Positions 11,772 through 36,146 of a stretch of DNA of 64,000 nucleotides are shown one piece after another. The stretch comes from Escherichia coli (GTDB taxonomy: Bacteria > Pseudomonadota > Gammaproteobacteria > Enterobacterales > Enterobacteriaceae). A model generated the notes under the pieces. It had not been told where the DNA came from, ran no database searches, and was given only the letters and a program-made list of their open reading frames with translations. The position numbers and the translations under genes were made by a program. Position 1 is the stretch's first letter, and each line of letters opens with the position of its first letter. Location of the stretch: assembly GCA_902500055.1 (NCBI GenBank), contig GCA_902500055.1_4131.1; one strand, written 5' to 3'.

Positions 11772-12218
11772 TTAGTTATATGCAGTGAATAGATCAATAT
11801 TTTTATCATCTACACTGATTAATTTACCAGTTGAACTAACAAACACAATATTACCACCAGGGGTGATTTGAACACGCTGGTTTACTGAATATTGATCACT
11901 AAGGTTATAATTAGCCCATTCAACTACATAACGCTGTTCAACACCGTTAGTATCATATAGATAAACGTGTGTAACGTCACGCATTTTTAAACGGTCTAAC
12001 AGTGTAGAGTTGTCCATGAAATCCGATGGTGTATTGCTGCGTAATGCAATACCGAACTCACCGATAACAGTACTAATTGTCAGTCCGTTTGAAAAACGGC
12101 TACAAAGAGTCTTCTCATCAGCAATATGCATCCATAAAACATTCTTTACATCAATATCAACAAATTCACAGTTTTCAAAAACCAAACCTACTTTGGAAAC
12201 TTTACCATTAAATTGCAT
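11772..12218 (-). CDS. hypothetical protein
   Basis: 148 aa ORF. Confidence 0.55.
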   Translation of the reverse strand: MQFNGKVSKVGLVFENCEFVDIDVKNVLWMHIADEKTLCSRFSNGLTISTVIGEFGIALRSNTPSDFMDNSTLLDRLKMRDVTHVYLYDTNGVEQRYVVEWANYNLSDQYSVNQRVQITPGGNIVFVSSTGKLISVDDKNIDLFTAYN

Positions 12219-12663
12219 TAGTAACTCCTATTTTTTTATATTTTAAAATTAAATCACTCACGGCTTTCATTAGCTTATATGGAATAGCTAACTCTTGAAC
12301 AGTACTTTCCATAAAATGTTCTTCTTCTGTATCATAAAATGTTGAACTATAGTGTTCACAATCATCTATACTATCATAAAAAGAAGACGTAAGTTTATCA
12401 ACAATGACAGTGATTTGTTTGTCAGTTTTGGCACATCCTACCTGAACGGTTAATCCAATATCATCAGCCTCTACACGAATTATAAACGAATTATTAGTAT
12501 AGTTCAGCCAACAATCTTCACCAAAGTATACAACACTGTGTTTCTTCTGAAATGAAGTTGCGGTGTTAAGAACACCAATAACAACATCAACTGTTTTTTC
12601 ATTTAAAATATTAGACATTTTTATTCCTGCTTCGTATGTTTCGTGAAATCTCAAATATTCCAT
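12208..12663 (-). CDS. EExFQxST-motif paralog family protein
   Basis: C-proximal TEEEHFMESTVQE; start probably at internal Met near 12618. Confidence 0.55.
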   Translation of the reverse strand: MEYLRFHETYEAGIKMSNILNEKTVDVVIGVLNTATSFQKKHSVVYFGEDCWLNYTNNSFIIRVEADDIGLTVQVGCAKTDKQITVIVDKLTSSFYDSIDDCEHYSSTFYDTEEEHFMESTVQELAIPYKLMKAVSDLILKYKKIGVTNAI

Positions 12664-13039
12664 TCAACTGCTCAACAGTTAAACCCTGTAAATCGTAAAC
12701 TGTTGATAGCTGAAAGAACATCTCTGAATCTATAGTATCATGTTCAATTGGAAGACTCAAGAGGTCTTTATTAATAAAATAATCATATGTTCGAATTGTC
12801 AAAGAATCACCAAAGATATCAATGTAAAATTTCGGAACATTATGTAACGAAACATCTATTAATATGTTTTCAGCATATCTACAAGAAATTTTAGAATTAT
12901 TTTTATAAGATTGGTATGAAAAATTATAAGGTTCATCGACCAATGTGTATGATGAGGTATCACCTTCGGAAAATATTACACCACATTCAATAAGATGTGT
13001 TAACGACTTAGGTGGAATTTTTAACATTTCACTTCCCAT
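12611..13039 (-). CDS. EExFQxST-motif paralog family protein
   Basis: C-proximal DSEMFFQLSTVYDLQGLTVEQL. Confidence 0.55.
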   Translation of the reverse strand: MGSEMLKIPPKSLTHLIECGVIFSEGDTSSYTLVDEPYNFSYQSYKNNSKISCRYAENILIDVSLHNVPKFYIDIFGDSLTIRTYDYFINKDLLSLPIEHDTIDSEMFFQLSTVYDLQGLTVEQLNGIFEISRNIRSRNKNV

Positions 13040-13457
13040 CCTTACTCATATTACTACGGATCACCCCACTAAGAAAACATATTTTCCTTAATGTATCATA
13101 ACTGATATTTGTAAGATCATGTACAAAATTCAACTGCAAGTACATTTCTTCAGTTAATTGATTAAATGTATCATCAACATGAATGTTAGTATGTTCCGTT
13201 ATATCTATTTCTATATTATTTTCCCAAATATCAATGCTAACAGCATAGTCTGATGTATGTCTGGATTGAACTGAAATAAAAATATTATTACTGTTGTATA
13301 ATGTCTCTGTGTATCCATTCAAAAATGATCCAACGACAACATCAAAAATGCCATCTCTAATTGGGTTTTTTGTTTCAAACGTATCACTACAAACTTGACG
13401 GTATACAATGTCAACATACTTATCAATTAAAGTAAACAAATAACTCATTGCATTCAC
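13029..13457 (-). CDS. EExFQxST-motif paralog family protein
   Basis: C-proximal TEEMYLQLNFVHDLTNISYDTL. Confidence 0.55.
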   Translation of the reverse strand: MNAMSYLFTLIDKYVDIVYRQVCSDTFETKNPIRDGIFDVVVGSFLNGYTETLYNSNNIFISVQSRHTSDYAVSIDIWENNIEIDITEHTNIHVDDTFNQLTEEMYLQLNFVHDLTNISYDTLRKICFLSGVIRSNMSKDGK

Positions 13458-13463
13458 CTATAT

Positions 13464-13496
13464 AAGAAAAAAGGCCGATTCATCGAATCAGCCTTA
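13464..13496 (-). terminator. rho-independent terminator
   Basis: Minus strand aaggctgattc-gatg-aatcggcctt followed by TTTTT. Confidence 0.6.
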
Positions 13497-13682
13497 AGTA
13501 TAACACAGTAGAAGTTAAAAAGTCAACTTCTAAATTACAGCATCCAAGAGGAATAAAAAGATACTGTTAGAGGGTAACGAATATAATGAATTTGAGGGTA
13601 ATATCATTATACGTAAAAAAGTGATAGCTTCTATACATAAGGAGGAATCAGTACTGACTAGAAGCTATCGGGTTAAACGATT

Positions 13683-13967
13683 TCAGTACTGAGTGTTTAG
13701 TTTAGGATGAGTATTTCCATCTTCGATTTGTTTTAGAATCGAGTCACGAATTTCTACTGCCCCTTGATAACTATATTTATCTTTTGGGATCACCCATGTA
13801 TATTCGCCATCAGTGGTTTTAAAATCAATACATGGATTATCCCTGTATTCAGATGCAATGATTGCAATAACATGTAATGAATTCAATGAATGATTTGTAT
13901 AAGGATAATTGTTATTATCTCTGAACGTGAATGTTTTAAGTTCATCAGGTGCAACAATGAATTCCAT
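13683..13967 (-). CDS. hypothetical protein
   Basis: 94 aa ORF. Confidence 0.5.
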   Translation of the reverse strand: MEFIVAPDELKTFTFRDNNNYPYTNHSLNSLHVIAIIASEYRDNPCIDFKTTDGEYTWVIPKDKYSYQGAVEIRDSILKQIEDGNTHPKLNTQY

Positions 13968-14158
13968 TATTCATCCTCGTACTTCTTGAATGGTGGAACA
14001 TCTACCTTGAAGTCTTTGCACATCTTAGTTGTACGAACTTCAGTATTGTTGTGATAATTTTTCTTAAATTCATAAGAAACATAATTACGAATACCAGGTG
14101 TATGAATAATAGCAAGAACCAATGTACGACCAAACAAGCATAATAAATTCCAGAACAT
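13967..14158 (-). CDS. hypothetical small membrane protein
   Basis: 63 aa, hydrophobic N-terminus. Confidence 0.4.
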   Translation of the reverse strand: MFWNLLCLFGRTLVLAIIHTPGIRNYVSYEFKKNYHNNTEVRTTKMCKDFKVDVPPFKKYEDE

Positions 14159-14167
14159 ATGAATCTC

Positions 14168-14533
14168 CTAATTGTGGGTTTTAACCAAACGTGAGACAGC
14201 TAGTATAGCATTAACCTCATCCAATGTCAACCCACCAATGTCATTAATCATTGAGTACTGAAATAGTGATTCTTCAGTGTAATGGTAATCATGAGAAGCA
14301 ATAAAGATTGCTGGTTTAGATGCATCCAAAATTATCTTTGTCATTGTACTATATATATCAAATTGATATAATAGATTTTCACCTGTATATGCTACGTAGA
14401 TATTATTTGAATAGGCTGGATGTACCATTGTAAAACCATCATAACATAATATTTTTATGTTCGGATCGTCAAAATTGCCTGTATAAAGGTTATTACAAAC
14501 ATCTTGCATTATACGTACTATTAGACTAGTCAT
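14168..14533 (-). CDS. EExFQxST-motif paralog family protein
   Basis: C-proximal TEESLFQYSMINDIGGLTLDEV. Confidence 0.55.
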   Translation of the reverse strand: MTSLIVRIMQDVCNNLYTGNFDDPNIKILCYDGFTMVHPAYSNNIYVAYTGENLLYQFDIYSTMTKIILDASKPAIFIASHDYHYTEESLFQYSMINDIGGLTLDEVNAILAVSRLVKTHN

Positions 14534-14954
14534 TTAACGGATTTAATACCTCTTCTGGAATCAATCTTTGAACTTTAAGGATAGCACTAATGTCATCAAA
14601 TGTTAATCCTAATGTGTTGTTAACGAGGCAGTACTGGAAGAATTTTTCTTCAGTGTTTATATCATCTACATTAAATTCAATGTTTTCATCAATATAATAA
14701 TCTTCATTAAAATTATCATATTCAGAAATTCTAAATGTAACAGTGTTCAAATACATATCAATTGAATAAAACTGCTTATTAAGTTCATAAGCCATAAAAA
14801 TATTAAAACATTTACTCAAATCAGTGATTTCATTCAATTCTGGATCATAGCAAAAAACACGCACTTCACCAACGTCTTCTACTTGTACATCGTGTAGTGA
14901 CCATGTTTTATTTTGTAATACATAATCAACAAATTTTACAATGTTCATTTTCAT
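14526..14954 (-). CDS. EExFQxST-motif paralog family protein
   Basis: C-proximal TEEKFFQYCLVNNTLGLTFDDI. Confidence 0.55.
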   Translation of the reverse strand: MKMNIVKFVDYVLQNKTWSLHDVQVEDVGEVRVFCYDPELNEITDLSKCFNIFMAYELNKQFYSIDMYLNTVTFRISEYDNFNEDYYIDENIEFNVDDINTEEKFFQYCLVNNTLGLTFDDISAILKVQRLIPEEVLNPLND

Positions 14955-14970
14955 TGTGTACCTTAAAAAT

Positions 14971-15672
14971 TTATTTACGATTCCTTGCGGAGTTTTTATT
15001 TCTTGCTCTAAATGTCGGTGTCATTGAATGACAATTCGGACAAAGAATTTTTAAATTCGATAGGTCATTATTTGTTGCATCACCATCAATATGTTCAACT
15101 TCGGTAAGGACTGCACCATCAACTGGATGACGTTCATCCCATCCACAATCTTCACATGCAGTTCCACGTGTTTCATGTAGGTATCTTCTCACATAATTAC
15201 TAATTTTGCAAGTCTTACCAGTACAACCCAGTTTATCACCAGCAAGCCAAGACTTAACATAAGTGTCATATTGGTGCTGTTTATGGCATTTCGAATCACA
15301 ATATTTCTTATCTGTTTTTCCTTTAGGTATAAATGTATTACATGATAAACAGTACTGATCCTTCACCATCTCACCTGTATGTCGGTTATAACCTTTATTA
15401 TTATAACTAGCAGCACAAGATTGATTGCAAAATTTCTTTACTTCAACCCCTTTACAAAAAGGTATTGAGTTATGACACATCAAACACAACGTTGGATTTT
15501 CATTATAATATCTTTCACGAAATTCTTTATTAAGATTCGACAATGTAAATCCATACTTTAATAGTATTGTATTATAAGAAGGTAGTTCTTTACATTCATT
15601 GATATCTTTTTTGGTTATATTTGATTTTTTATTTTTGTATAGATTGTACATAATCTCTTTCATAACATCCAT
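14971..15672 (-). CDS. HNH endonuclease with Cys-rich zinc-finger region
   Basis: CEDCGW...EVEHIDGDATNNDLSNLKILCPNCH HNH motif plus several CxxC pairs. Confidence 0.75.
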   Translation of the reverse strand: MDVMKEIMYNLYKNKKSNITKKDINECKELPSYNTILLKYGFTLSNLNKEFRERYYNENPTLCLMCHNSIPFCKGVEVKKFCNQSCAASYNNKGYNRHTGEMVKDQYCLSCNTFIPKGKTDKKYCDSKCHKQHQYDTYVKSWLAGDKLGCTGKTCKISNYVRRYLHETRGTACEDCGWDERHPVDGAVLTEVEHIDGDATNNDLSNLKILCPNCHSMTPTFRARNKNSARNRK

Positions 15673-15729
15673 ATCCTATATAAGTAATATATAGTATTTA
15701 GTGCTATGAAATAGATTCGAACTTATTTG

Positions 15730-15803
15730 TGCCCCAATTCCGACTCGAACGGAAAAATCTCACGATTACAAATCGTGTGCATTACCAATTTTGCTATTGA
15801 GGC
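15730..15803 (-). tRNA. tRNA-Thr (anticodon TGT)
   Basis: Hand-folded cloverleaf: acceptor GCCTCAA/TTGGGGC, anticodon stem CACGA/TCGTG with loop TTTGTAA, T-arm TTCCG-TTCGAGT-CGGAA. Confidence 0.65.
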
Positions 15804-15977
15804 TAATTTAGGAAGTAAGATAACCAACAAGTCTCCATACTCTTTCGCATTGAGGGGAGGTCATCTTACTGTATTATTTATCATTTTTATTTTTGCTTAT
15901 TTCGACGCATTAACTTGATTAAAGCAAGTGTAGGCATAGGTTGTGCTGAACAAAGTACTTCAAGCTGTTTGGCAGTC

Positions 15978-16064
<87 letters not shown>

Positions 16065-16066
16065 TA

Positions 16067-16192
<126 letters not shown>

Positions 16193-16211
16193 GCATACTC
16201 GAAGTACCTCT

Positions 16212-16317
<106 letters not shown>

Positions 16318-16361
16318 AATTGCTTTATAAGCTACTGAATCGGGAATCACAACCTCCCCAT

Positions 16362-16616
<255 letters not shown>

Positions 16617-16625
16617 TAATACCCG

Positions 16626-17027
16626 CTAGTAGTTTAAGTCTGCGGCGTTGAATACACCAAGTGAAGTCTTACCACGTAGTTTAGGTGAAAGGACATACTT
16701 TGTCAATTTCTTTTTACCGTACCAGTGATTGAATTCGTCTTCAGTAACATGTGGGTTCTGGAAATCGTATTCACGTTTCTTATGAAGTTTTTTAGCTTGT
16801 TCTGCAATCTTAGTTCGTTGATCTTCTGGAATGTCGAATGTATTGTTACGTTTGCACCATTCGTGCACTAATGCTTCCAGAAGGAACTGTTCAGTTTCTT
16901 TGACTAGAGTGATTTTAGTCAAGCCTTTTTCGATGTTCATATAATCATCGACATATCCATTCCAAATAACAATCTCTGGATTGCCGTCAATCTCTTGAAG
17001 CATTTTGATCAAGTCATTCTTTTTCAT
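16626..17027 (-). CDS. hypothetical protein
   Basis: 133 aa; N-terminus MKKNDLIKMLQ paralogous to 16398..16613. Confidence 0.5.
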   Translation of the reverse strand: MKKNDLIKMLQEIDGNPEIVIWNGYVDDYMNIEKGLTKITLVKETEQFLLEALVHEWCKRNNTFDIPEDQRTKIAEQAKKLHKKREYDFQNPHVTEDEFNHWYGKKKLTKYVLSPKLRGKTSLGVFNAADLNY

Positions 17028-17035
17028 TTAAATTC

Positions 17036-17347
<312 letters not shown>

Positions 17348-17397
17348 TTAATTAACAGTTAATCGCACCACCTATTGTGCTACAGAGTCATAATTAT

Positions 17398-18102
17398 TTA
17401 TAAGCCATGTCTTTTCAAAAATCTAGCAAACACATTTTTGGAAGCACCATAACTTTCATATATACTAACTTTTTTCTCACCATTATTCAAACGTTGTTTG
17501 ATATCTTCTATGTTATCTTCTAAACGTTTTACGTTTGCAAATTTCTTAGATGGTATATTATTTTTGGTTCTATAATTCAGTACTGAACCTGAACTAATAT
17601 TCATTATTTTAGCAATTTCAGTATCTAATAAACCTTGGTTAATATATTCTTTTACCTTTTCATAATCAACAGATGTTTCACCACCCTTTGTATTAGAAGG
17701 AGGCTTGACCATTTTTTGTGAACACTCAACACTACAATATTTTGTATATGATTTCACTTTAGTATGCCTACGGGTAAATTCCATATTACAACAAGCACAT
17801 ACAAATGAATCATATCGTGCTTGCACACCATTCTTATGTGTTTTATAACGATGTTCATCAACATGAAGTATTTGCAAATTTGACAAATCATCATTTGTGA
17901 AATCATTATCAATGTGGTCTGCTTCTTCAGACTCAGTTAAATATCTACCTTCTTGTACTGCTAATAGATATCTGGCATATTGAGTACTGCTTCTATCAGT
18001 TGGAGAATTATAAAGTATTACAGTTCTTCTACCTTCAGGGTTTATCTGTATATACCCATTCTCCCAATCATTACTGTATGGATATTCTAATTTTATTTTC
18101 AT
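17398..18102 (-). CDS. HNH homing endonuclease
   Basis: EEADHIDNDFTNDDLSNLQILHVDEH HNH core with basic HTH-like C-terminus. Confidence 0.7.
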   Translation of the reverse strand: MKIKLEYPYSNDWENGYIQINPEGRRTVILYNSPTDRSSTQYARYLLAVQEGRYLTESEEADHIDNDFTNDDLSNLQILHVDEHRYKTHKNGVQARYDSFVCACCNMEFTRRHTKVKSYTKYCSVECSQKMVKPPSNTKGGETSVDYEKVKEYINQGLLDTEIAKIMNISSGSVLNYRTKNNIPSKKFANVKRLEDNIEDIKQRLNNGEKKVSIYESYGASKNVFARFLKRHGL

Positions 18103-18433
18103 TATTTTATTTCAAAGTTTGTGAGCCATCTGTGAGTCGAACACAGTACCTAACGATTCGTATAATCTATAGTTTTCACTATAGTACGGACTATATCATC
18201 ATCCCATAGGGATGCCGGACGCTAATGATGTATTACACAGTAAGATCGTACTGTACCATCTAGTCTCTGCACCTTCCCAATACGCTTATTGGGCTTGGCT
18301 CAGGATTGTCATCACCATTACGTGTTAAGATTTCCCTGAATTCATCCAGTTTTTCAATCACCATTACTGATGAAAGTCACCATTGTCGATGAGTCGTTTG
18401 CTCTAACCACCGTGAGCTAATGGCCCGATTTAG

Positions 18434-18686
<253 letters not shown>

Positions 18687-18695
18687 TACTGAAAA

Positions 18696-19085
<390 letters not shown>

Positions 19086-19163
19086 ATCACCAACTTTAAT
19101 TAAAAAAAATGGATGGTGACGCTTTTAAACGTCGCTGTCAATTCAGCTTTATAACCACCCGTT

Positions 19164-19455: not shown

Positions 19456-19486
<31 letters not shown>

Positions 19487-19525: not shown

Positions 19526-19543
19526 CAGTACTGAATTATTTAG

Positions 19544-19548
<5 letters not shown>
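19526..19548 (-). repeat. promoter-like repeat copy 2
   Basis: cagtactgaattatttagtcaag; minus strand TTGACT -35. Confidence 0.5.
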
Positions 19549-19956
<408 letters not shown>

Positions 19957-20489: not shown

Positions 20490-21032
<543 letters not shown>

Positions 21033-21046
21033 AATATTATATTTTA

Positions 21047-21118
21047 TAAAGGGCCGGAGAATCGAACTCCGATTGGATTCTTAGAAGGAATCTGTTTTAT
21101 CCGTTAAACTAGCCCCTC
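21047..21118 (-). tRNA. tRNA-Arg (anticodon TCT)
   Basis: Hand-folded: D-stem GTTT/AAAC, anticodon stem GATTC/GAATC with loop CTTCTAA, T-arm CGGAG-TTCGATT-CTCCG; acceptor needs two G-U pairs. Confidence 0.55.
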
Positions 21119-21128
21119 AGTACTAATA

Positions 21129-21161: not shown

Positions 21162-21458
21162 TTATGATTCGGTTTGGGGATTAAATTTGATAAATTCATC
21201 TTTATGTTCATCTTCGATTGCAATATCTTCTACATCTTCAGGCCAGATTGTGGTGTCATCTTGGAAGAAGCGATAATTATCGAATTCTGCACTACGTGTT
21301 CTTCCCTGTTTCCAACCAATAGTGCAGTCATGATATACATCACCACTACGTGTACGAATACTAATTGAGTCTTGTGTTTCATAAAGAACATCAATGCGTG
21401 TGTCACGACTTGTGTTGAATTTTTCAAAATGCATAATATTATCCTCATTTAGAACCAA
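21162..21458 (-). CDS. hypothetical protein
   Basis: 98 aa ORF. Confidence 0.5.
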   Translation of the reverse strand: MVLNEDNIMHFEKFNTSRDTRIDVLYETQDSISIRTRSGDVYHDCTIGWKQGRTRSAEFDNYRFFQDDTTIWPEDVEDIAIEDEHKDEFIKFNPQTES

Positions 21459-21709: not shown

Positions 21710-22045
<336 letters not shown>

Positions 22046-22485: not shown

Positions 22486-22667
22486 CTCTTAATATCCATA
22501 ACGGCTATACTAAAATATGTACCAAAATCATCACAATTGATAATGTTGTTATAGTACTCAATTGGGTTACGCAATGATATATACAATTCAAGCTTAAAAT
22601 AGTATATATCTGCTGCATTTATATTATAGTGTAGATTAAACCACTCATCAAATGTCTTAGGCTGCAT
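22482..22667 (-). CDS. hypothetical protein
   Basis: 61 aa ORF. Confidence 0.4.
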   Translation of the reverse strand: MQPKTFDEWFNLHYNINAADIYYFKLELYISLRNPIEYYNNIINCDDFGTYFSIAVMDIKR

Positions 22668-23061
22668 TATATTTATCTTTATAAAAATCCATGATTTTAG
22701 TCAACAGTACTGCAATCGTATAATCTAAATCAGGATAAAGTAAATTGTACTGAAATTCTTCCTCAACACTATAGTTAGTGGTACAGTACTGGTAATCTTT
22801 ATAACCTATTGAAAAATAATTCGGATACAATGTACAACGAAAGCGATAAGCTTCATCTGTCATATAATCATTGTATTCAACACAGAAGTATAGTGATTTT
22901 GAATTTAATTCGATAAGCTCCACGAAACCATCTGGTAATGAATGATTATAAATGGTATTATCATTATTAAACCATTCATAATATTTTTCTAAAAAATCAC
23001 TAATAGATACATCAAGACTTTGTATAGGTGGAGTTATGATAATTTGAACTTCGTTATTCAT
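22657..23061 (-). CDS. EExFQxST-motif paralog family protein (divergent)
   Basis: C-proximal SVEEEFQYNLLYPDLDYTIAVLL. Confidence 0.5.
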   Translation of the reverse strand: MNNEVQIIITPPIQSLDVSISDFLEKYYEWFNNDNTIYNHSLPDGFVELIELNSKSLYFCVEYNDYMTDEAYRFRCTLYPNYFSIGYKDYQYCTTNYSVEEEFQYNLLYPDLDYTIAVLLTKIMDFYKDKYNAA

Positions 23062-23606
23062 TTTCTCCCCTTATTATATTTTACATATGGGTTATCATAA
23101 AGATCATAACTTTTCTGAGCACGTTCTTTTTTGCGTTCATACATAATTCTATCATACTCCTTCGCTTTCCCATTTGCTTCATTATACAGTTTTAAAATTA
23201 GCAAAAATGTATCAAGGTCAGGGTAGTTTGCTGGATTGATAGTACTTAACATAAATCGTTCTTCTTCAGTTCTAGCAACATCAAACTCATACTTAATAGT
23301 TTTATACCCACTCCATTTATATGTGTGTATTACTTTGTTAGTAAGTACATTATATTCAACGAAATCAGTACTACCATCAAGTACACGAGTAATCTTAATA
23401 GATGTACCAATGACAATCTGTACAGAACTCATTTCTGAAGTTTTAAAGTAATAAATGTTATTACGGCGAAGATTAACTTCTCGATCTCCAATGCGAACAT
23501 GCTTAATAACTTCCATTAATGGTTCTGGTACACCACGAATTGGCATGTTAATGCTCCTTTTTAATTCTATACATTTTAACAGCACTGGTTTCCCAAAAGT
23601 CACCAT
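23058..23606 (-). CDS. EExFQxST-motif paralog family protein
   Basis: C-proximal TEEERFMLSTINPANYPDLDTF. Confidence 0.5.
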   Translation of the reverse strand: MVTFGKPVLLKCIELKRSINMPIRGVPEPLMEVIKHVRIGDREVNLRRNNIYYFKTSEMSSVQIVIGTSIKITRVLDGSTDFVEYNVLTNKVIHTYKWSGYKTIKYEFDVARTEEERFMLSTINPANYPDLDTFLLILKLYNEANGKAKEYDRIMYERKKERAQKSYDLYDNPYVKYNKGRK

Positions 23607-23814: not shown

Positions 23815-24207
23815 CTACCAGCATGTTTTCATAACTTCTGTGATGTGATTCATTTTATCTTTAAGTACGTAAGGGATGCAAATTTCACCTGGGCTTAACG
23901 TTGTGTTCTTTTGAAACTCATCTTCTTCGGAATCAGCCAGGTAAAATGGGTGTGTCACAAAGGTATCATCAACTGGACGATTATGTGGTTTCATTAATGC
24001 ATCATGATTGACAAAATAATAAGCATCAATATCAGGACGGAAATACAAACAATCAACCTTAATGCACGGGTGTAACCATAAGGACAAAGAATATGTTATT
24101 TGGTTACCAATTTGTCTTGGGCCTGATGCAATTGTATTGATGTTATTTTTATCTTGTACCATTTCATAAATGAAATCTATCATTTCGTGTAGTTCTGATT
24201 CAGTCAT
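23815..24207 (-). CDS. EExFQxST-motif paralog family protein (divergent)
   Basis: C-proximal SEEDEFQKNTTLSPGEI. Confidence 0.5.
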   Translation of the reverse strand: MTESELHEMIDFIYEMVQDKNNINTIASGPRQIGNQITYSLSLWLHPCIKVDCLYFRPDIDAYYFVNHDALMKPHNRPVDDTFVTHPFYLADSEEDEFQKNTTLSPGEICIPYVLKDKMNHITEVMKTCW

Positions 24208-28453: not shown

Positions 28454-28586
28454 TCACGTAGGTCAATCTTTTCAACTGAACCACCGAGTACTAGATAGTG
28501 AAAATTAGAATCTTTGTTTGCCATATTCAAAAGATCTGCTTTCTGTTGAAGCGTAAAGCGTGAAGTACTGTTACGTACTGGCATAG

Positions 28587-29030
28587 TTACTCCTTAAAGT
28601 AGATATCACGAATTTGCTTAATCATCTCTAACTCTTGAAGTCCTATCATACCAAAGTTTTCTTGTACTGTCAACTGTTGGAAGTACATTTCCTCTAAATT
28701 ATCATAAGGAATATCCACTAATGATAAAGGAACACGTTCACCACGGTATAGCAGATCTTCAACTAAAAGTTTTAAAATCATGATAGAAAATGAATCTTTT
28801 TGGATATGAAATTTGTAAAATGTCTGGTTAGTACTGAACATTGTATTTGATGGATTGAAACCCATTTCAACAAATACTGTATCTTTATCATTATGTGTGA
28901 CATATGTACATCTTGAATTCGCAAGAACTTTAGATTTTGGGAAATAAAAATCACCCATCAACTTCTGTCGTTTCCAATCCTCGTATACAACTGGATGCTT
29001 AACCTTCTTCAATTGGTGCAGTACTGTCAT
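28587..29030 (-). CDS. EExFQxST-motif paralog family protein
   Basis: C-proximal LEEMYFQQLTVQENFGMIGLQEL. Confidence 0.55.
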   Translation of the reverse strand: MTVLHQLKKVKHPVVYEDWKRQKLMGDFYFPKSKVLANSRCTYVTHNDKDTVFVEMGFNPSNTMFSTNQTFYKFHIQKDSFSIMILKLLVEDLLYRGERVPLSLVDIPYDNLEEMYFQQLTVQENFGMIGLQELEMIKQIRDIYFKE

Positions 29031-29410
29031 AGTTTTTTCCAGTCCAATGAATCGAAATCGATTTGCTCAGGATTATCAACAGCGACAACTCGTGCATTAT
29101 GAAGAGTTTCAAAGTAGCCGTTCCACGGTGTTCGTAATGGAACTGTCACATCGCCAACTTTAACCAAGAATGAATATTCTGGTGATATTGGGTCAAACCA
29201 CTCTTTTTGTTTAGCATTTTCAACGATAGTTTCGTGTTCTTTAGTATAGCAATTATCTTGCTTCATATAAAACACCCAATGCTCTTTTAGGCACTGTAAA
29301 GCAGCAACTGCTTCCTCTTTAGAAGACCATTGAATATCAATTGTATTAAGAACGTCATAACAATTTTCAGTGTCCCCTGTAGTGTAATGTACTTCAATGC
29401 TGTATTTCAT
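29027..29410 (-). CDS. hypothetical protein
   Basis: 127 aa ORF inside the paralog array but lacking the motif. Confidence 0.5.
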   Translation of the reverse strand: MKYSIEVHYTTGDTENCYDVLNTIDIQWSSKEEAVAALQCLKEHWVFYMKQDNCYTKEHETIVENAKQKEWFDPISPEYSFLVKVGDVTVPLRTPWNGYFETLHNARVVAVDNPEQIDFDSLDWKKL

Positions 29411-29865
29411 TAATCATCGCCTTTTAGTAATTTACAAATTTCAATCATATGATAATAACATGTATTCCAAAATTGTCCATTAGTACTTCCAACATCATGC
29501 ACAGTACTTTGTTGGAAAACATATTCATCGTTGAACATCATTTTAATATCATCAATGTAAAATTCTGGTTTTGAATCATTATTGTATTCAATACTCGTTT
29601 CACCATCTGGATCAAGTGAAATTGATGATATGTCGTGAATTCCTCTCGGATTTGTTGGATAAATTCTCAACGTAAGAGGATAGAAGTCTGGATCGGTTTC
29701 ATAAGTATATTCGATTATGTAATAACCATCACCAGTAATTGATTGATATTTAAATGTAGTTTCAATTGAATTTGAGATGTTAAATCCCAGTTTCTTTATC
29801 TCATGTAGATGTGATAATATTTTATGTAAAGATCCTAAAACATGAATCAAATTATCAATTTTCAT
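29410..29865 (-). CDS. EExFQxST-motif paralog family protein
   Basis: C-proximal NDEYVFQQSTVHDVGSTNGQF. Confidence 0.55.
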   Translation of the reverse strand: MKIDNLIHVLGSLHKILSHLHEIKKLGFNISNSIETTFKYQSITGDGYYIIEYTYETDPDFYPLTLRIYPTNPRGIHDISSISLDPDGETSIEYNNDSKPEFYIDDIKMMFNDEYVFQQSTVHDVGSTNGQFWNTCYYHMIEICKLLKGDD

Positions 29866-30404
29866 TTACGATCCTTTGAAAAGTTCAGTTTAAAAGTTTT
29901 ACCAAATTCCATTGTAGCTTTACCCAGATTGTTAATATTTTCTTTCAACATTTCTTGCATCTTCCTAATACTTTCAATCCAGGCTTCTTCTTCGATACGA
30001 AGAATTGGTCGCAATCGTTCCTGAATATCGTTAAAACGTGTATTGAGTTCAACCAATGATTCATATGTGAAATCTTTCATATCGATAATAGTACTTCTTT
30101 GAAAGAATTCTTCTTCAGACAAATTACTTAAAATGATTTTATCACGACCAATAGATAATGTCAATTCATCATCTTTATTTTTTTTAATTACAATACTAAT
30201 AGGTGTTTTTAATGTAATGCAAATATCATGATTATTAAATGTTTCAGTTTGGTTTGACATTCTGAATTGAAGTTTCCCAGATAAAGCATGTACTGGTGAT
30301 GGTTGCTTTTTACCAGTAATAACATCTTCCCATGAATCGAGAATATTATTAATAATTTTAACATAAGGAATTGGCATATATGCACCTATGAAAAATCCAC
30401 GCAT
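29862..30404 (-). CDS. EExFQxST-motif paralog family protein
   Basis: C-proximal SEEEFFQRSTIIDMKDFTYESL. Confidence 0.55.
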   Translation of the reverse strand: MRGFFIGAYMPIPYVKIINNILDSWEDVITGKKQPSPVHALSGKLQFRMSNQTETFNNHDICITLKTPISIVIKKNKDDELTLSIGRDKIILSNLSEEEFFQRSTIIDMKDFTYESLVELNTRFNDIQERLRPILRIEEEAWIESIRKMQEMLKENINNLGKATMEFGKTFKLNFSKDRK

Positions 30405-30419
30405 TGCGTGGATTTGTAA

Positions 30420-30950
30420 TTATTCAAGTATAGTAATTTCAATTAAACGAATTTCGATAAACTCGTTTTCAGTTTCCCATGACGTGCCAAATTTCTTTTC
30501 AAGTTCAGATTTCACATCACTTTTAAATTTTCCCATAGTATTAGGAATAATTTGTTTGGTTAATTTGTCGTAACCACAATAAAACATAGGTTTCTCCCTT
30601 CGAGATATTAGCTGAACAAAATCTTTTGGATATGCAGGTATGTTATGCATCACTTCATGAATACACTCAGTACTTGAATCTTGTACTTTGTACATTACAT
30701 TAAGTTTACCTCTGAAATTTGCGGTCATATCAACAATAGTTCCTTTACCCGATTTAAGTAAAGTTCCATTCTTTGAATGAGAGCAATAAAATACCTCATC
30801 ACCAATATTAGGATAATACAAATTAAATTCTAATTCAGATTTTACAGCCAGACGTTTGAAACTTTCTGCACGTTTTATATAAGTTTGGTGTTTGTTTATG
30901 TTCAAAAGAATATATCTCGTAGTAAGTGTGATATAACTGGCATAGTCCAT
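30420..30950 (-). CDS. hypothetical protein
   Basis: 176 aa ORF; start overlaps the methyltransferase 3' end. Confidence 0.5.
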   Translation of the reverse strand: MDYASYITLTTRYILLNINKHQTYIKRAESFKRLAVKSELEFNLYYPNIGDEVFYCSHSKNGTLLKSGKGTIVDMTANFRGKLNVMYKVQDSSTECIHEVMHNIPAYPKDFVQLISRREKPMFYCGYDKLTKQIIPNTMGKFKSDVKSELEKKFGTSWETENEFIEIRLIEITILE

Positions 30951-31762
30951 CCATTCCCAAGCATTTTGTATGCTTGTGTTGAACTACTAACTTTGAAGTA
31001 GTTTACATCAATTCCTTGCAACATGCAACACTCTTGTACTGTTAAATGACGATAGTCCACATTTCGCTTACCATGTTCAATAAGGAAATCCCTATCGATA
31101 TCAGGTTCTTTGAAAACAATTTGTCTTCTTGATTTATTAAAGTACTGGTTACAATCACCACCTTTAAAATAGTTAGCATCTATACAGTACGAAGCGGTTC
31201 TGTCAGTGTACCAACCATCTTCAATAATATCTTGAAGTTTAGGTGCATTGGATAATGCAGGTGGTATAAAAAGCTTATCAGTACTGTACCAGTAATATCT
31301 CTGCCTGAAGTGAGGCGTATAATGCTGGGAGTTTATCAGTACTGGTGCAACACCAATCTCTTTGTTGAATATATCCAATGATTCTTTTTTCATTTTAACA
31401 TTCTCAAACAAAAAATTCAAATTGGGATTTAAACTTTTTATGTGATTGAAAATGTCCATCATTGTGTAAAATAACATACTACGTGGATCTTGTAATCCTA
31501 ATTGTTTCCCAGCCGTTGATAGTCCTTGACATGGACTACCCCCGATAAGTAAATCAATTTTATCCCACTCAATATCCCATTCTCTCCATTTAGTTACATC
31601 ACCCAATTGGGTGATATCAGGAAAGTTAGCTTGGGATTCAGCTATTGCGTACTTGTCAATTTCGGATGAATAATATTTTTCAACAGGGATGCCAGCATCT
31701 TTTAATGCCATGTATCCCACACTCATCCCATTAAAAAGAGATAGTACTCGGATAGGTTTCAT
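30902..31762 (-). CDS. DNA (cytosine-5)-methyltransferase
   Basis: Motif I LFNGMSVGY, motif IV GGSPCQGLS, motif VI ENV, C-terminal LTVQECCMLQG and YKMLGNGWTMPV. Confidence 0.8.
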   Translation of the reverse strand: MKPIRVLSLFNGMSVGYMALKDAGIPVEKYYSSEIDKYAIAESQANFPDITQLGDVTKWREWDIEWDKIDLLIGGSPCQGLSTAGKQLGLQDPRSMLFYTMMDIFNHIKSLNPNLNFLFENVKMKKESLDIFNKEIGVAPVLINSQHYTPHFRQRYYWYSTDKLFIPPALSNAPKLQDIIEDGWYTDRTASYCIDANYFKGGDCNQYFNKSRRQIVFKEPDIDRDFLIEHGKRNVDYRHLTVQECCMLQGIDVNYFKVSSSTQAYKMLGNGWTMPVISHLLRDIFF

Positions 31763-31814
31763 ATAAAATCCTTTTTATATTGTTAAGGTACTATAATATA
31801 TTATAGCATCTTAT

Positions 31815-32105
31815 TTAGAAATCTTCCAAACTTTTTTCATCACACCATCGTGATGTACAGATGATTGCAGATGCCATAATTGAAGCACTTGCACGTCCTC
31901 CACCGAGTAAGTACTGGCTAATTACACCAATCATATTGAACACTTTATCATACTCGGTTAGTTGTTCAAAACCTTTCTTCCAATGCTGATATTCTTCTTC
32001 TGTGACATTAAACTCACCATCAAGTTCCTTTAAAATCTTTTTAAGCACAGCACTATGTTCACTCATCATCATCTCCATATCGTTCGTCATAAAAATCATC
32101 ATCAC
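31815..32105 (-). CDS. hypothetical protein
   Basis: 96 aa ORF. Confidence 0.45.
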   Translation of the reverse strand: MMMIFMTNDMEMMMSEHSAVLKKILKELDGEFNVTEEEYQHWKKGFEQLTEYDKVFNMIGVISQYLLGGGRASASIMASAIICTSRWCDEKSLEDF

Positions 32106-32144
32106 GATCTAATGGTTCTTTTGGCTTTTCAGACATATATTTCC

Positions 32145-32405
32145 TCACATGGTAAAGGTATTATCACCATCCATATCTTCATCAGTTGCTTCAGCTAATG
32201 TCTTGATTGTAAGTAATCCACGCTTCACGTACAACATGAAGACCTTTTCATAATTACCAAACATAATCTCAGGTGACATGTAATTCTCTGTTACAATGAC
32301 GATTGGACGGCCCTGTGAAAGCATACGAAACATAGTACGATATTTGTCAAATGTACGAAATTCATCCATGTTCATCATGTGGCGTTTACGAACTACTTTA
32401 GTCAT
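32145..32405 (-). CDS. hypothetical protein
   Basis: 86 aa ORF. Confidence 0.45.
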   Translation of the reverse strand: MTKVVRKRHMMNMDEFRTFDKYRTMFRMLSQGRPIVIVTENYMSPEIMFGNYEKVFMLYVKRGLLTIKTLAEATDEDMDGDNTFTM

Positions 32406-32419
32406 CTTATTACCTTTAG

Positions 32420-32860
32420 TTAATTGAACTCTACTTCTGGGTAATGATTATAGAACATCTCACGAACTGCGTCAAGATGTTCTTGAAATTGTTTTATATC
32501 TTCTAATGATGGTGCATCAATAACAGTACTAAGTTGAAACAACGATTCTTCTGTGTTATATAGTGACATATCAAATGAGTTATTGTTGTCATCAGTTATG
32601 ATATTATCACAAATTTCGTAAGTGTCAATACAAACATCATCAAGTGTTGTATTATCATATACAGTGTATACGAATACAAAAATAAAAGAAGAATGTTCTT
32701 TACCATAACGCGGTGGGTCATATGTCACATAGCATTTGTGGTCAAATGTATCGAGTTCCATAGACACCACCCCAGCTTCACGATATTCATTAGTTTCACT
32801 GGTAAGATCCGGTATTGATGTTATCGAAAGTAAGTGGAGAAATTTACTTGGATTTAGCAT
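32420..32860 (-). CDS. EExFQxST-motif paralog family protein
   Basis: C-proximal TEESLFQLSTVIDAPSLEDI. Confidence 0.55.
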   Translation of the reverse strand: MLNPSKFLHLLSITSIPDLTSETNEYREAGVVSMELDTFDHKCYVTYDPPRYGKEHSSFIFVFVYTVYDNTTLDDVCIDTYEICDNIITDDNNNSFDMSLYNTEESLFQLSTVIDAPSLEDIKQFQEHLDAVREMFYNHYPEVEFN

Positions 32861-33315
32861 TTCACCACCATTGGATTTTGCGACTGTATATTAAAAAGGG
32901 ATAATACAAAAGTACTCAATTTTTCGAAACAATCTACTAATACATTTAACTCATCATAACTAACACCAATTTCACGAATAAGCGATTGTTGAAAGAATCC
33001 TTCTTCGGTTAACGTTAAACTACTAACCTCAGTTATGTTATAATAACTGTGGGATGTTGTGGTTGATATTAGTTGTATTGCAATCGTATCTGATGTTGTG
33101 TTGTACAGATATAAATATTTTGTTTTTCTTTCCAATGGATCTATACATGAAAGATCGATCATGTCATAGGTTTTTCCAATAAAAATATTACAATCATCTG
33201 ACAATTCACAACAAATGCGTATATGTTCTTTCGGGTCATGAACACGTTGTGTGTCAAATTCACATGACATTGCAATTTCAAAATGATTTTTTATTTCGTC
33301 AACATTCATCTGCAC
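32854..33315 (-). CDS. EExFQxST-motif paralog family protein
   Basis: C-proximal TEEGFFQQSLIREIGVSYDEL. Confidence 0.55.
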   Translation of the reverse strand: MQMNVDEIKNHFEIAMSCEFDTQRVHDPKEHIRICCELSDDCNIFIGKTYDMIDLSCIDPLERKTKYLYLYNTTSDTIAIQLISTTTSHSYYNITEVSSLTLTEEGFFQQSLIREIGVSYDELNVLVDCFEKLSTFVLSLFNIQSQNPMVVKC

Positions 33316-33683
33316 CCACCATTAATTCTTATATTTGTATAGTTTAATGCTTTTTTAATAATACCAATTTCTGTAATTCCTATTACATTTTTCTCAATCA
33401 ATGACAATTGGAATAGTTCCTCTTCGGAAATATCAATACTGTGGATTCTTGTACAATAATCGTTGAAGTCATATACATATCGTATTGTATAGTCGTTTAT
33501 AGAAACTGATACAATTGCAATCCCATCATGGATGTAAGTTAGTTCATTTGAGTATCTATTAAAAATTAACCTATCTGGTGAACCTATTGGTAGTTGAAAT
33601 GTATTTCTAGTATCTTGAACAATAACAAAATCATCATCTATATTTCTACTCAGAACACCCAAAATATCATATATAGTAGTCAT
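33306..33683 (-). CDS. EExFQxST-motif paralog family protein
   Basis: C-proximal SEEELFQLSLIEKNVIGITEI. Confidence 0.55.
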   Translation of the reverse strand: MTTIYDILGVLSRNIDDDFVIVQDTRNTFQLPIGSPDRLIFNRYSNELTYIHDGIAIVSVSINDYTIRYVYDFNDYCTRIHSIDISEEELFQLSLIEKNVIGITEIGIIKKALNYTNIRINGGCR

Positions 33684-33684
33684 G

Positions 33685-34089
33685 TTATTCTTTACCTTCA
33701 GCAGTTCTGATAATTTTCATAACTTCTCTGGATAGTGCGTATATTTTTTTATAGTACTCAAATGTAACTGAACCAAAATCATTAATAGTACTAGCCATGA
33801 AGAACGATTCTTCTGTATATAGTTCATTTGACAAAGCAACCAGTTCTTGGTGAAATTTTGCGTCCTTCCAATAACGAAATTCAAAAACAAATTGTCCGTC
33901 ATGACCGACTCTACAACATTCAGAACGATCACTGTCTACACAGCTAAACACAATATCCCTTTCAGAGTCGTACCAGATATTTCCAATATTTGTTTCAATA
34001 ACAGCATAATCAATTTTTTTAGAATTTGGAATTAAACCTTTTTTCACCAGCACTAAACTGGTATTATCAATATCTAGTAAACTTACCAT
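33685..34089 (-). CDS. EExFQxST-motif paralog family protein
   Basis: C-proximal TEESFFMASTINDFGSVTFEY. Confidence 0.55.
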   Translation of the reverse strand: MVSLLDIDNTSLVLVKKGLIPNSKKIDYAVIETNIGNIWYDSERDIVFSCVDSDRSECCRVGHDGQFVFEFRYWKDAKFHQELVALSNELYTEESFFMASTINDFGSVTFEYYKKIYALSREVMKIIRTAEGKE

Positions 34090-34090
34090 A

Positions 34091-34501
34091 TCAATTCCCC
34101 ATTACTAAAGTGTTTTTAATCTCCAACAATTCACTATACATATTCTTCAATTGTAATATATCTTCAAAAGTAATACCACCAAGATCATCAACTAATGAAC
34201 GTTGGAATAAAGATTCACTTGTTTGTAATGTATCTAAATCGGTGATTTTTAATAAAGAACTTGGATTAAGTGTTTCGACTAGTAGTATGTTTTTGTATGG
34301 TACATATGTGATCTTGATGTTCTTTTTATAATTAATCTTATAAAATCGCATAATTGACGATTCATCACTTAGTTGGATAATTGGGTCGTCTTGATCATTA
34401 GACCACCATACAGTACTAGTCATATGATTGACGTGGTGGTTCAATTCTGATATGTCCAAATCTAAAAAATATTTTAGTTCATTGTGTAAATCTAAACTCA
34501 T
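34091..34501 (-). CDS. EExFQxST-motif paralog family protein
   Basis: C-proximal TSESLFQRSLVDDLGGITFEDI. Confidence 0.55.
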   Translation of the reverse strand: MSLDLHNELKYFLDLDISELNHHVNHMTSTVWWSNDQDDPIIQLSDESSIMRFYKINYKKNIKITYVPYKNILLVETLNPSSLLKITDLDTLQTSESLFQRSLVDDLGGITFEDILQLKNMYSELLEIKNTLVMGN

Positions 34502-34556
34502 AAATTTATCCTCAATGCAGCATCATCATGTATTGTAGGATAAACCCACAATAATG

Positions 34557-34952
34557 TCAAGATGTGAAATAATTATACCAGTAATATAGTTCTTTTAATT
34601 CTTCAGTACTGAACAATACTTCTTCTATTGTAGATTGTTGAAAGTGATATTCATCATTTAGATACATAGAAATATTACTATATACTTTCCTATTGTATTG
34701 ACATAAAAAAGAAGTTTTTTGATTAATGTATTCCGTAAATGTTAATTTATCTAACTCAATATCGAATGATAATTTAATAATATGACTATTATCATTTACA
34801 TACATTAGTTTCTTTGAAAAATGATCAATTGTAATATATTCTTTATGAGAGAACTGAAATATATTATTAAATTTATTACCATTTGTGCTTCTAAATTTTT
34901 CAAGGTAATAAGAAAGTGGTTTAATTATTGAAGTTCCAATATTGTTCTTCAT
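34557..34952 (-). CDS. EExFQxST-motif paralog family protein
   Basis: C-proximal NDEYHFQQSTIEEVLFSTEEL. Confidence 0.55.
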   Translation of the reverse strand: MKNNIGTSIIKPLSYYLEKFRSTNGNKFNNIFQFSHKEYITIDHFSKKLMYVNDNSHIIKLSFDIELDKLTFTEYINQKTSFLCQYNRKVYSNISMYLNDEYHFQQSTIEEVLFSTEELKELYYWYNYFTS

Positions 34953-34973
34953 ATATCCTCAATTTTAGATAAG

Positions 34974-34996
34974 AAAAATGCCCCGAAGATCGGGGC
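34974..34996 (-). terminator. rho-independent terminator
   Basis: gccccga-aga-tcggggc hairpin followed by TTTTT on the minus strand. Confidence 0.6.
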
Positions 34997-35112
34997 AGTA
35001 CTAAAATGATTTTGTACCAAAAGGGGAATAAGAACAAAATGAAAATATAATAACGCATCATTATTATGTAAGGGAGGAAAGTAACATGATATGTTAACCA
35101 TTTCTGGTATAT

Positions 35113-35664
35113 TTATTTATCATTTAATTCTTTAAGTTGGGTTTGTATATCTTTAGTTATATTTCGAATTTTCTTAAAGCAATAAACACTATCGTCCAAT
35201 TCGATTTTAAGTTCATGTGTAAATGCATACAGAAGTTCAGCAAATACTAAATCTTGACGCATCCAGTTTCCATCTTTATATAAAGTCATTACACAATATG
35301 GGCATTCACTATTAGAAGTTTGCTTTCCAATAAAAACACTTTGAATTGATTCATGCTTAAAGCCAATAAAACTTTCATTTATTTTTTTAATTTCAGTACT
35401 GATATCGAATTTAGCACTGGTGTTGATTGCAAAAATTTTATTTCCACTTTCATCAGTATTGATGTTGAGTTCAATATCACTACCTAGTTTACGTACTGCT
35501 AGAGTATAAAGAAGTAATTCATACATGTCGTAACTTGTTACATTACCATTTGGTGCAATTACATCAACACTAACACCGTGCATTTTTACTTCTGTATTAA
35601 ATCCATCTTTATCAGAAAGAAAATCAGTGATTTGCTTTGTAAGGATTTTAATTTGGTCTATCAT
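35113..35664 (-). CDS. hypothetical protein
   Basis: 183 aa ORF. Confidence 0.55.
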   Translation of the reverse strand: MIDQIKILTKQITDFLSDKDGFNTEVKMHGVSVDVIAPNGNVTSYDMYELLLYTLAVRKLGSDIELNINTDESGNKIFAINTSAKFDISTEIKKINESFIGFKHESIQSVFIGKQTSNSECPYCVMTLYKDGNWMRQDLVFAELLYAFTHELKIELDDSVYCFKKIRNITKDIQTQLKELNDK

Positions 35665-35684
35665 ATTTCATTTCCTTATGTGAT

Positions 35685-35709
35685 AAAAGCCTCCATGATG
35701 GAGGCTTTT
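35685..35709 (-). terminator. rho-independent terminator
   Basis: aaaagcctccat-ga-tggaggctttt hairpin with flanking A/T runs. Confidence 0.65.
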
Positions 35710-35717
35710 ATATTTAC

Positions 35718-36146
35718 TTAGAGAGATTCTTCGTATTCAGCAACAATCTCAACCATTTCATTAATGAACTTGATGTGAGAATGTGTCACTGTACGGAAGT
35801 CGTAAACAAGTGACTGTTGGAAAAATACATCTTCATCAAGAGAACCATCAAAGTTCAAATCAATGTTTTCATCGTCATTGCTTGGTGCAACTTTAATATT
35901 CAGAAGATTTTCATCAACTGCAAGTTTTACAACACAACCCAGTGCAATGGCAAGAACATATGCTGGTTTCTTAGCTTTTTCATTACGGAATGGTGCACGT
36001 AGAGCACAAAAAGTACTGCTAATCTCATCATTTGGTTCTTTGTATTTAACATTGACCATTAGTTCTTCGATTTTGACGCTCTCAATAACACGACCAGTTT
36101 CTGGAGCGAAGAAAGAATGTTCACGGATAGTTTGTTCGATATTCAT
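35718..36146 (-). CDS. EExFQxST-motif paralog family protein
   Basis: C-proximal DEDVFFQQSLVYDFRTVTHSHI. Confidence 0.55.
   Translation of the reverse strand: MNIEQTIREHSFFAPETGRVIESVKIEELMVNVKYKEPNDEISSTFCALRAPFRNEKAKKPAYVLAIALGCVVKLAVDENLLNIKVAPSNDDENIDLNFDGSLDEDVFFQQSLVYDFRTVTHSHIKFINEMVEIVAEYEESL

Follow-up and report, generated by a model that had tools for sequence, protein, structure and literature searches.

A very large family of small acidic proteins with a near-invariant motif helix in Asteriusvirus and other RaK2-like jumbo phages of enterobacteria

A stretch of 64,000 nucleotides from Escherichia coli assembly GCA_902500055.1 (contig GCA_902500055.1_4131.1; hereafter the window) raises the question of what is encoded by twenty small minus-strand open reading frames (ORFs) that lie between positions 12208 and 36146 and carry the same motif near the C-terminus. 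The original prediction, made from the nucleotide sequence alone, held these ORFs to be paralogues that could be assigned to no described family. Megablast assigned the window to Asteriusvirus, a genus of E. coli jumbo myoviruses that includes 121Q, PBECO4, G17, CRJP21, Sharanji and phAPEC6 and whose genomes measure ~350 kb; identity is 96-98% over the flagged region. Features overlapping this region in the Asteriusvirus records are all named 'hypothetical protein' except one DNA methyltransferase. The results securely identify a very large, clade-specific family whose members are small, acidic and non-virion and share one predicted fold, an invariant helix and an early-type transcriptional context.

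All of the predicted ORFs and motifs were present, comprising 17 secure and three possible members. Secure membership was determined with leave-one-out hidden Markov models (HMMs), and ORF 23058-23606 was scored with an HMM that excluded it; further models comprised a 186-sequence HMM, an iterated HMM and profile-profile comparison with hhalign. The near-invariant motif spans 13 residues, T-E-E-x-[FY]-F-Q-x-S-[TL]-[VIL]-x-D. Fourteen matches to a loose and seven to a strict form of the motif were found in the window, exclusively in minus-strand ORFs, versus means of 0.022 (loose) and 0 (strict) in 500 residue shuffles. The motif columns in an alignment of 155 family sequences were T98/S34, E146, E146, x, F/Y/L, F153, Q137/M18, x, S143, T87/L61, V/I/L, x and D109, and outside the motif the alignment retained only alternating hydrophobic or aromatic positions of the beta-strand type. 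The matches to leave-one-out HMMs and the occurrence of the motif beyond chance indicate that the paralogous family is genuine. The predicted divergence of the N-terminal regions was also apparent, in that the N-terminal parts alone were missed by the leave-one-out HMMs (E > 0.27) and the HMM signal of the window members resides chiefly within the last ~40 residues; the N-terminal parts nonetheless keep the common hydrophobic and aromatic beta-strand pattern of the 155-sequence alignment. The similarity exceeds a short low-complexity stretch, since distant representatives align over 80-130 residues and paralogues of ~20% identity share the predicted fold. Conservation of the motif is at the protein level because synonymous codons vary, with the invariant Ser drawn from both codon families (AGT in six cases and TCN in five), Phe encoded by TTT and TTC, and Gln by CAA and CAG. 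A conserved DNA or RNA element was rejected on the same grounds.

The members, all encoded on the minus strand, occur in three clusters and are given here with motif and leave-one-out E value. The first cluster contains 12208-12663 (TEEEHFMESTVQE; 5.2e-6), 12611-13039 (DSEMFFQLSTVYD; 7.8e-11), the fast-evolving 13029-13457 (TEEMYLQLNFVHD; 4.1e-5), 14168-14533 (TEESLFQYSMIND; 1.2e-11), which at 121 residues is the most compact, and 14526-14954 (TEEKFFQYCLVNN; 2.9e-5). Residues 16-151 of 12208-12663 match PHROG 24027 (unknown function), and the true start of this ORF is probably internal, yielding the 136-residue protein annotated in 121Q and phAPEC6 (411 nt). The secure members of the second cluster are 19544-19897 (TEEEYFQMSTVQE; 3.5e-9) and 23058-23606 (TEEERFMLSTINP; 2.3e-5 with the HMM lacking this ORF), the latter with a basic C-terminal tail and an isoelectric point (pI) of 9.45. 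The third cluster contains 28587-29030 (LEEMYFQQLTVQE; 8.8e-6), 29410-29865 (NDEYVFQQSTVHD; 4.2e-5), 29862-30404 (SEEEFFQRSTIID; 7.3e-9), which has a tail of ~74 residues beyond the motif and only sub-threshold noise in Pfam, 32420-32860 (TEESLFQLSTVID; 2.9e-9) with a net charge of ~-21, the fast-evolving 32854-33315 (TEEGFFQQSLIRE; 7e-10), 33306-33683 (SEEELFQLSLIEK; 1.5e-3, and 2.3e-13 with the 186-sequence HMM that contains this ORF), 33685-34089 (TEESFFMASTIND; 1.1e-9), 34091-34501 (SESLFQRSLVDD followed by LGGITFED; 9e-9), 34557-34952 (NDEYHFQQSTIEE; 1.3e-7) and 35718-36146 (DEDVFFQQSLVYD; 1.2e-5). The three possible members all lie in the second cluster and show a degenerate variant of the motif with one aromatic residue, [DE]EFQ[KY]x[TL], placed as far from the C-terminus as the motif of the secure members. 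These divergent ORFs were the best-ranked non-members with the 186-sequence HMM (E 0.013-0.042), and the hhalign matches (E 0.004-0.025) extended over the motif only. Specifically, 18696-19085 (DEADEFQKRTVYE) scored 0.027-0.042 and was aligned by hhalign over 38 columns at the motif with E 0.014; 22657-23061 (SVEEEFQYNLLYP) scored 0.035 and 0.025 with hhalign; and 23815-24207 (SEEDEFQKNTTLS), the motif of which is invariant among orthologues, scored 0.013 and 0.0043 in profile-profile comparison over 19 columns. Iteration of the HMM lifted the first two to E 0.0023 and 0.0035, respectively. ORF 21162-21458, which contains the sequence RFFQDDTT, was rejected as a member (HMM E ~1 or higher).

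The original prediction described a conserved module attached to diversified domains, a description at odds with the structural models. The AlphaFold2 model of 33685-34089, computed with 149 diverse homologues, had a predicted local distance difference test score (pLDDT) of 81 and a predicted template-modelling score (pTM) of 0.67, and placed seven strands within residues 13-86, a helix at residues 93-102 corresponding to the motif, and a second helix at residues 110-130. The motif helix is predicted with a pLDDT of ~90 and reads E-E-S-F-F-M-A-S-T-I. A model of 34091-34501 built from a shallow alignment was of low confidence (pLDDT 61) and had the same topology. Common to both is a short N-terminal helix, seven beta-strands, the motif helix, a short loop and a long C-terminal helix, the loop corresponding to the 'DxGGxT' stretch that had been noticed downstream of the motif. 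Thus, each member is predicted to be a single compact alpha/beta domain in which a seven-stranded antiparallel beta-meander is followed by a C-terminal helix-loop-helix, and fusion of a conserved module to unrelated domains was rejected. The members are stand-alone proteins of ~115-200 residues and mostly acidic, with a median pI of 4.7 vs 5.7 for neighbouring ORFs and net charges down to -21. A Foldseek search of the PDB yielded no significant match (best E 0.11, template-modelling (TM) score below 0.37), and the only matches in BFVD were uncharacterised relatives from RaK2 and GAP32.

Evolution of the members was examined by comparison with phage TH47, which is 87.8% identical at the nucleotide level. 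All 17 secure members have syntenic one-to-one orthologues in TH47. The pooled ratio of nonsynonymous to synonymous divergence (omega, dN/dS) was 0.28 for the members vs 0.17 for the other genes of the region, with dN of 0.159 vs 0.077; individual values were 0.08-0.44 for 16 of the 17, the remaining member, 19544-19897, having a ratio of ~1. These values indicate that the members behave as real genes under purifying selection that change approximately twice as fast as their neighbours, and the possibility of spurious ORFs was rejected on the basis of omega below 1 and the syntenic orthologues. Members 13029-13457 and 32854-33315 are only 44% and 49% identical in amino acid sequence to their syntenic orthologues, whereas identity to TH47 is 93-98% in genes only a few hundred bases distant, a mosaic pattern that suggests either recombination or locally accelerated evolution. 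Between orthologues, aligned sites differ most often in the beta region (39%), less in the C-terminal helix (22%) and least in the motif (14%).

The size of the family was determined in a complete relative, ECO103 4-12-1 (OR844650.1, 351,992 bp), that is 96% identical. The non-iterated HMM detected 48 ORFs at E<1e-3 and 60 were detected after three iterations, of which 50 contain the explicit motif and all lie on a single strand. They are concentrated in two arrays at 28-49 kb and 265-295 kb with few members elsewhere; 17 are counterparts of the window members and ~38 constitute the second array, which corresponds to 164.8-189.8 kb of 121Q and gp~400c-466c of phAPEC6 and is annotated 'hypothetical' throughout. 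The predicted count of 20 in the window was therefore borne out but the scale of the family was underestimated, the window holding an estimated one third of it (~20 vs 50-60 genome-wide). By these counts the family occupies about 10% of the gene set of a 350-kb phage. Members of the second array have longer tails of 34-69 residues beyond the motif, and five are near-identical tandem duplicates (DSEEYYFQNSTVYDDE...) of very recent origin.

Relatives were found well beyond Asteriusvirus. A Klebsiella RaK2-like phage genome contains 33-36 members in two arrays, and tandem runs of 7-9 members are present in RaK2 and in a 7.4-kb metagenomic scaffold. Matches were obtained with tblastn in Salmonella phages Munch and 7t3, Escherichia phage EJP2, Pectobacterium phage CBB, Cronobacter phage GAP32 and Klebsiella phages RaK2 and K64-1. 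Among 1.84 billion representative proteins, 142 clusters (50% identity) were recovered at E<=1e-3, all of 62-217 residues, nearly all with the motif and many aligning across 80-130 residues. A search of IMG/VR, a collection poor in such phages, with a degenerate DNA pattern of the motif matched only RaK2. At the DNA level the window region matches genomes of the RaK2 group over just 2-5% of its length. This distribution marks the family as a hallmark of the enterobacterial RaK2-like clade, and it appears to be restricted to phages of Enterobacterales. In metagenome scaffold ERZ28616885, a gene for peptidyl-tRNA hydrolase 2 (PTH2; 2125-2520) is located amid a run of nine members.

The prediction that the family is unassignable was upheld. 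None of the 20 window proteins reached the gathering threshold in Pfam, no Pfam family was matched by more than two of 149 family members, and no NCBIfam match was found for the 10 members scanned. One of the 149 representatives, not a window protein, matched RecQ-1-like_HTH (PF21220) with E 3.7e-12; it is not among the 40 sequences, representatives and window proteins together, that were scanned individually, and may represent a fusion protein or have been included in the family wrongly. Each paralogue matched its own PHROG with E values of 1e-56 to 1e-118 and weakly cross-matched sister PHROGs. The PHROGs matched include 24027, 17453, 24510, 24941, 24321, 27549, 21500, 23322, 38573, 30548, 34619 and 13866; all are of 'unknown function' and none with an assigned function was matched. 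PHROGs holds individual paralogues with their orthologues, each as a separate family, and carries no record that they form a superfamily, nor of its motif, fold or copy number. Every source name in a 15-billion-protein collection was 'hypothetical' or 'uncharacterised', and no description of the family was found in the literature on RaK2, CBB, phAPEC6, PA5oct, Sharanji, UE-S1 and jumbo-phage comparisons. What is already known is that large DNA viruses have multigene families and, in passing mentions, that RaK2-like phages contain paralogues. New are the superfamily, motif, fold and 50-60 copies, which are unrecorded in Pfam-A, NCBIfam, PHROGs, protein names and searchable papers.

The transcriptional context was evaluated by searching the window (1-64000) for sigma-70 sites scoring at least 11/12. 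The coding (minus) strand contained 27 such sites, 10 of them perfect, and the other strand one, vs 2.7 expected from Markov shuffles; most are located 30-50 nt upstream of start codons. Genome-wide, the sites are densest around the region equivalent to the window and just upstream of the second array. Two near-consensus sigma-70-type promoters scoring 11/12 lie directly upstream of members on the minus strand, one at 34532-34560 (TTGACA-17-TACAAT) 31 nt from 34091-34501 and the other at 19929-19956 (TTGACT-16-TATAAT) 32 nt from 19544-19897. A hairpin resembling an intrinsic terminator (34979-34997, minus strand; 8-bp stem with six G-C pairs and a T-run) between 35113-35664 and 34557-34952 is a likely operon boundary. 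As judged from these predicted sites, the promoter density has the signature of early transcription by the host RNA polymerase, and the family genes are probably transcribed early by the host sigma-70 enzyme. In CBB, the equivalent block of short ORFs, with RpoD-like promoters and a phage sigma factor, was inferred to be an early, host-takeover region (PMC5259590).

The electrospray tandem mass spectrometry (ESI-MS/MS) list of 62 virion proteins of phAPEC6 has one gap from gp078c to gp149c and another from gp347 to gp549 (PMC7247149). The family maps in phAPEC6 to gp083c-gp134c and ~gp400c-466c, so that both arrays fall inside these gaps and the possibility that members are virion components was rejected. 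We infer that the members are cytoplasmic. ORF 36341-36676 (minus strand), not a family member, has orthologues PBECO4 gp428 and 121Q gp78 that are named 'virion structural protein' in RefSeq; the phAPEC6 orthologue, gp135c, is absent from the published virion list.

What, then, do these proteins do? The original prediction had ventured, as speculation, an effector, host-takeover or anti-defence set. The promoter context, absence from the phAPEC6 virion, acidity and fast divergence of the sheet fit this idea, and the reading we favour, tentatively and at somewhat less than an even chance, is that the family is a diversified panel of proteins that bind or inhibit targets inside the cell and serve host takeover or counter-defence. 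According to this proposal, the host sigma-70 RNA polymerase would transcribe the genes early, the motif helix and conserved aromatic residues of the sheet would act as a keystone holding the fold together, and each paralogue would use its rapidly changing sheet and loops to recognise a separate host target. Early expression, binder function and target identity are, like cytoplasmic location, steps that we infer. Several points weigh against the proposal. The 17 window members are kept one-to-one between phages that are 12% divergent in DNA, although binders engaged in an arms race might show gain and loss, and only one of the 17 has an omega that is not well below 1. The structural matches discussed below are weak and indicate no function, and the fold is a predicted one. 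Lastly, five near-invariant polar residues (E, E, Q, S and D) on one short helix exceed the usual demand of fold stability, an excess that favours a shared functional site.

Such a site is the basis of the main rival, an adaptor or hub model, which we consider unlikely, in which the invariant acidic-aromatic helix docks one common host or phage partner and the variable sheet brings a separate client. Candidate partners would be a protease or chaperone, RNA polymerase or the sliding clamp, making the family an analogue, with the same low likelihood, of the F-box and PRANC-type families of large eukaryotic viruses. In agreement with this model, near-invariance of polar residues of the exposed type persists across 155 divergent sequences (E in 146/155 at both positions, F in 153/155, Q in 137/155 and S in 143/155), Ser is kept through both codon families, the motif evolves three times slower than the sheet, the apparent restriction to phages of Enterobacterales would be expected of a host- or clade-specific partner, and 121Q encodes a ClpS-like adaptor, by annotation only. 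The motif core Q-x-S-[LT]-[VIL] also resembles bacterial clamp-binding motifs such as QLSLF and QMSLL, which we take as a lead only. However, structure prediction puts the motif in a helix of a folded domain (pLDDT ~90) and not in a free linear segment, and the conserved Tyr and Phe residues of the sheet suggest that it is at least partly buried against the sheet. The boldest form of the model, to which we assign a slightly lower likelihood still, is that the TEEx[FY]FQxS helix serves for docking in every member and that ~60 diversified beta-sheet domains per genome thereby plug into one host or phage machine. If true, a single machine (protease/unfoldase, RNA polymerase, clamp or similar) would be redirected to dozens of host targets, a bacteriophage counterpart of the F-box/PRANC adaptors on a fold unseen in the PDB. 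About as likely as the adaptor model is a role internal to the phage, in which the acidic members would, for example, chaperone basic phage proteins, help them to assemble, or organise replication or transcription. This role is difficult to reconcile with the setting of the family, which is one of strong host-type promoters and short ORFans instead of replication or morphogenesis modules, with the failure to find any member with virions (PMC7247149), and with a fast sheet divergence not usually seen in proteins that partner conserved phage proteins.

The invariant acidic, Gln and Ser residues could alternatively form a catalytic or metal- or nucleotide-binding site (E-E...Q.S...D), but the conserved polar residues are all on one 10-residue helix with none elsewhere in the domain, no enzyme family was matched by sequence or fold in Pfam and Foldseek, and 50-60 enzyme copies per genome are hard to rationalise, leaving an enzyme family improbable. 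A family of duplicated DNA with little selective value is more improbable again: the tandem arrays, the recent duplicates of the second array and the interspersed homing endonucleases would be expected of a selfish expansion, whereas the constraint on 16 of the 17 members (omega 0.08-0.44), the retained one-to-one orthologues, conservation of the motif at the protein level and the maintenance of 33-60 copies across genera whose equivalent regions share almost no DNA similarity would not. We give the least credence to the motif as a recognition site for a protease of the potyviral NIa type (tobacco etch virus (TEV)-like E-x-x-Y-x-Q) that would free a C-terminal peptide of ~30 residues. In its favour is the only PDB sequence match of the 149-representative profile, the His-tag/TEV linker DYDIPTTENLYFQGS of the unrelated entry 9m0a (E 1.2), which is not significant; the fit of the family motif to ExxYxQ is probably coincidental. 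The residue after Q is variable, Ser occupies P2' instead of P1', structure prediction gives a well-ordered helix at the motif (pLDDT ~90), and virion mass spectrometry finds no members. We know of no 3C/NIa-like protease in RaK2-like phages or E. coli.

Three known folds gave weak structural likenesses. The p32/gC1qBP/Mam33 fold consists of a helix, seven antiparallel strands and two C-terminal helices, and p32 has the same order of secondary structure as the family models and is likewise very acidic. The Foldseek match was not significant (E ~0.5, TM below 0.3), MAM33 was not matched in Pfam by any window protein or any of the 149 family members, and unlike MAM33 the phage proteins are smaller and contain the TEExFFQxS motif, which has no MAM33 counterpart; the likeness is topological and not evidence of homology. 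Of the homotrimeric doughnut with its asymmetric acidic face, by which p32 is also characterised, the comparison covered overall acidity (median pI 4.7). Polo-box domains, including the polo-box domain (PBD) of Cdc5/PLK1, the cryptic polo box of PLK4 and PB3 (six-stranded sheet and one helix), were likewise matched only weakly. No conserved His, Lys or Arg position that could represent the phosphopeptide-binding His/Lys of polo boxes is present in the 155-sequence profile, and polo boxes lie C-terminal to a kinase domain whereas the family members stand alone at 115-200 residues. TipC2, which confers immunity to TelC, a type VII toxin, suggested a comparison with tandem arrays of polymorphic-toxin immunity proteins, but the structural score was weak and there is no sequence relationship; furthermore, no toxin domain was detected, ten neighbouring ORFs having been scanned without a Pfam match.

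Among the other neighbours, only HNH endonucleases, tRNAs and a Dcm methylase could be recognised, and these too lie on the minus strand. ORFs 14971-15672, 17398-18102 and 20490-21014, judged by eye from the sequence to be HNH-type homing endonuclease-like, are interspersed with the family and with tRNAs; TH47 lacks an orthologue of 14971-15672 at the syntenic position, indicating that the presence of these ORFs is strain-variable. Five tRNA genes are located between the first and second family clusters, Thr-TGT (15729-15803), Asn-GTT (17316-17389), Ser-GCT (18581-18670), Arg-TCT (21046-21119) and Gly-TCC (21952-22023), and the set at the same region of 121Q is partly different (Gly, Ser, Leu, Ser, Met, Asn and Thr). 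A Dcm-type cytosine methyltransferase (30902-31762) inside the third cluster matched no orthologue among the TH47 ORFs scanned, although both flanking genes did. Outside the window, 121Q is annotated with a ClpS-like protease adaptor and a T7 gp0.7-like protein kinase, at 34461-35006 and 104809-105483. One or the other might interact with the family or modify it, given that the Ser of the motif is invariant, which is offered as a lead only.

The family shows the attributes of a viral multigene family, with many tandem paralogues, restriction to a clade, a conserved core and a variable surface. The MGF360/505 genes of African swine fever virus (ASFV) and the ankyrin/PRANC and Bcl-2-like sets of poxviruses likewise comprise dozens of paralogues in one-strand tandem arrays within a region of short accessory or early genes, and likewise combine a conserved core with a fast-diverging surface and are clade-wide yet absent outside the clade. 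Bacillus phage G contains an expansion of ~35 zinc ribbons (PMC7824862), the only phage expansion for which we have seen a size stated, vs the 50-60 copies reported here. Neither the ASFV and poxvirus sets nor the zinc ribbons of phage G are related to the jumbo-phage family by sequence or fold.

In these 350-kb phages, over 80% of genes lack an annotation. The results collapse at least 16 separate PHROGs of unknown function, and probably more, into one family that can be studied as a whole. Between 33 and 60 copies are kept across phage genera infecting Escherichia, Klebsiella, Salmonella, Cronobacter and Pectobacterium, and this maintenance of copy number must reflect a major part of how jumbo phages that do not form a nucleus deal with their hosts. 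The invariant helix provides an experimental handle, through point mutants and as bait for partners, and the panel of paralogues would be a natural library of binders. Since these phages are being developed for therapy, the effects of 50-60 probably early proteins on the host matter.

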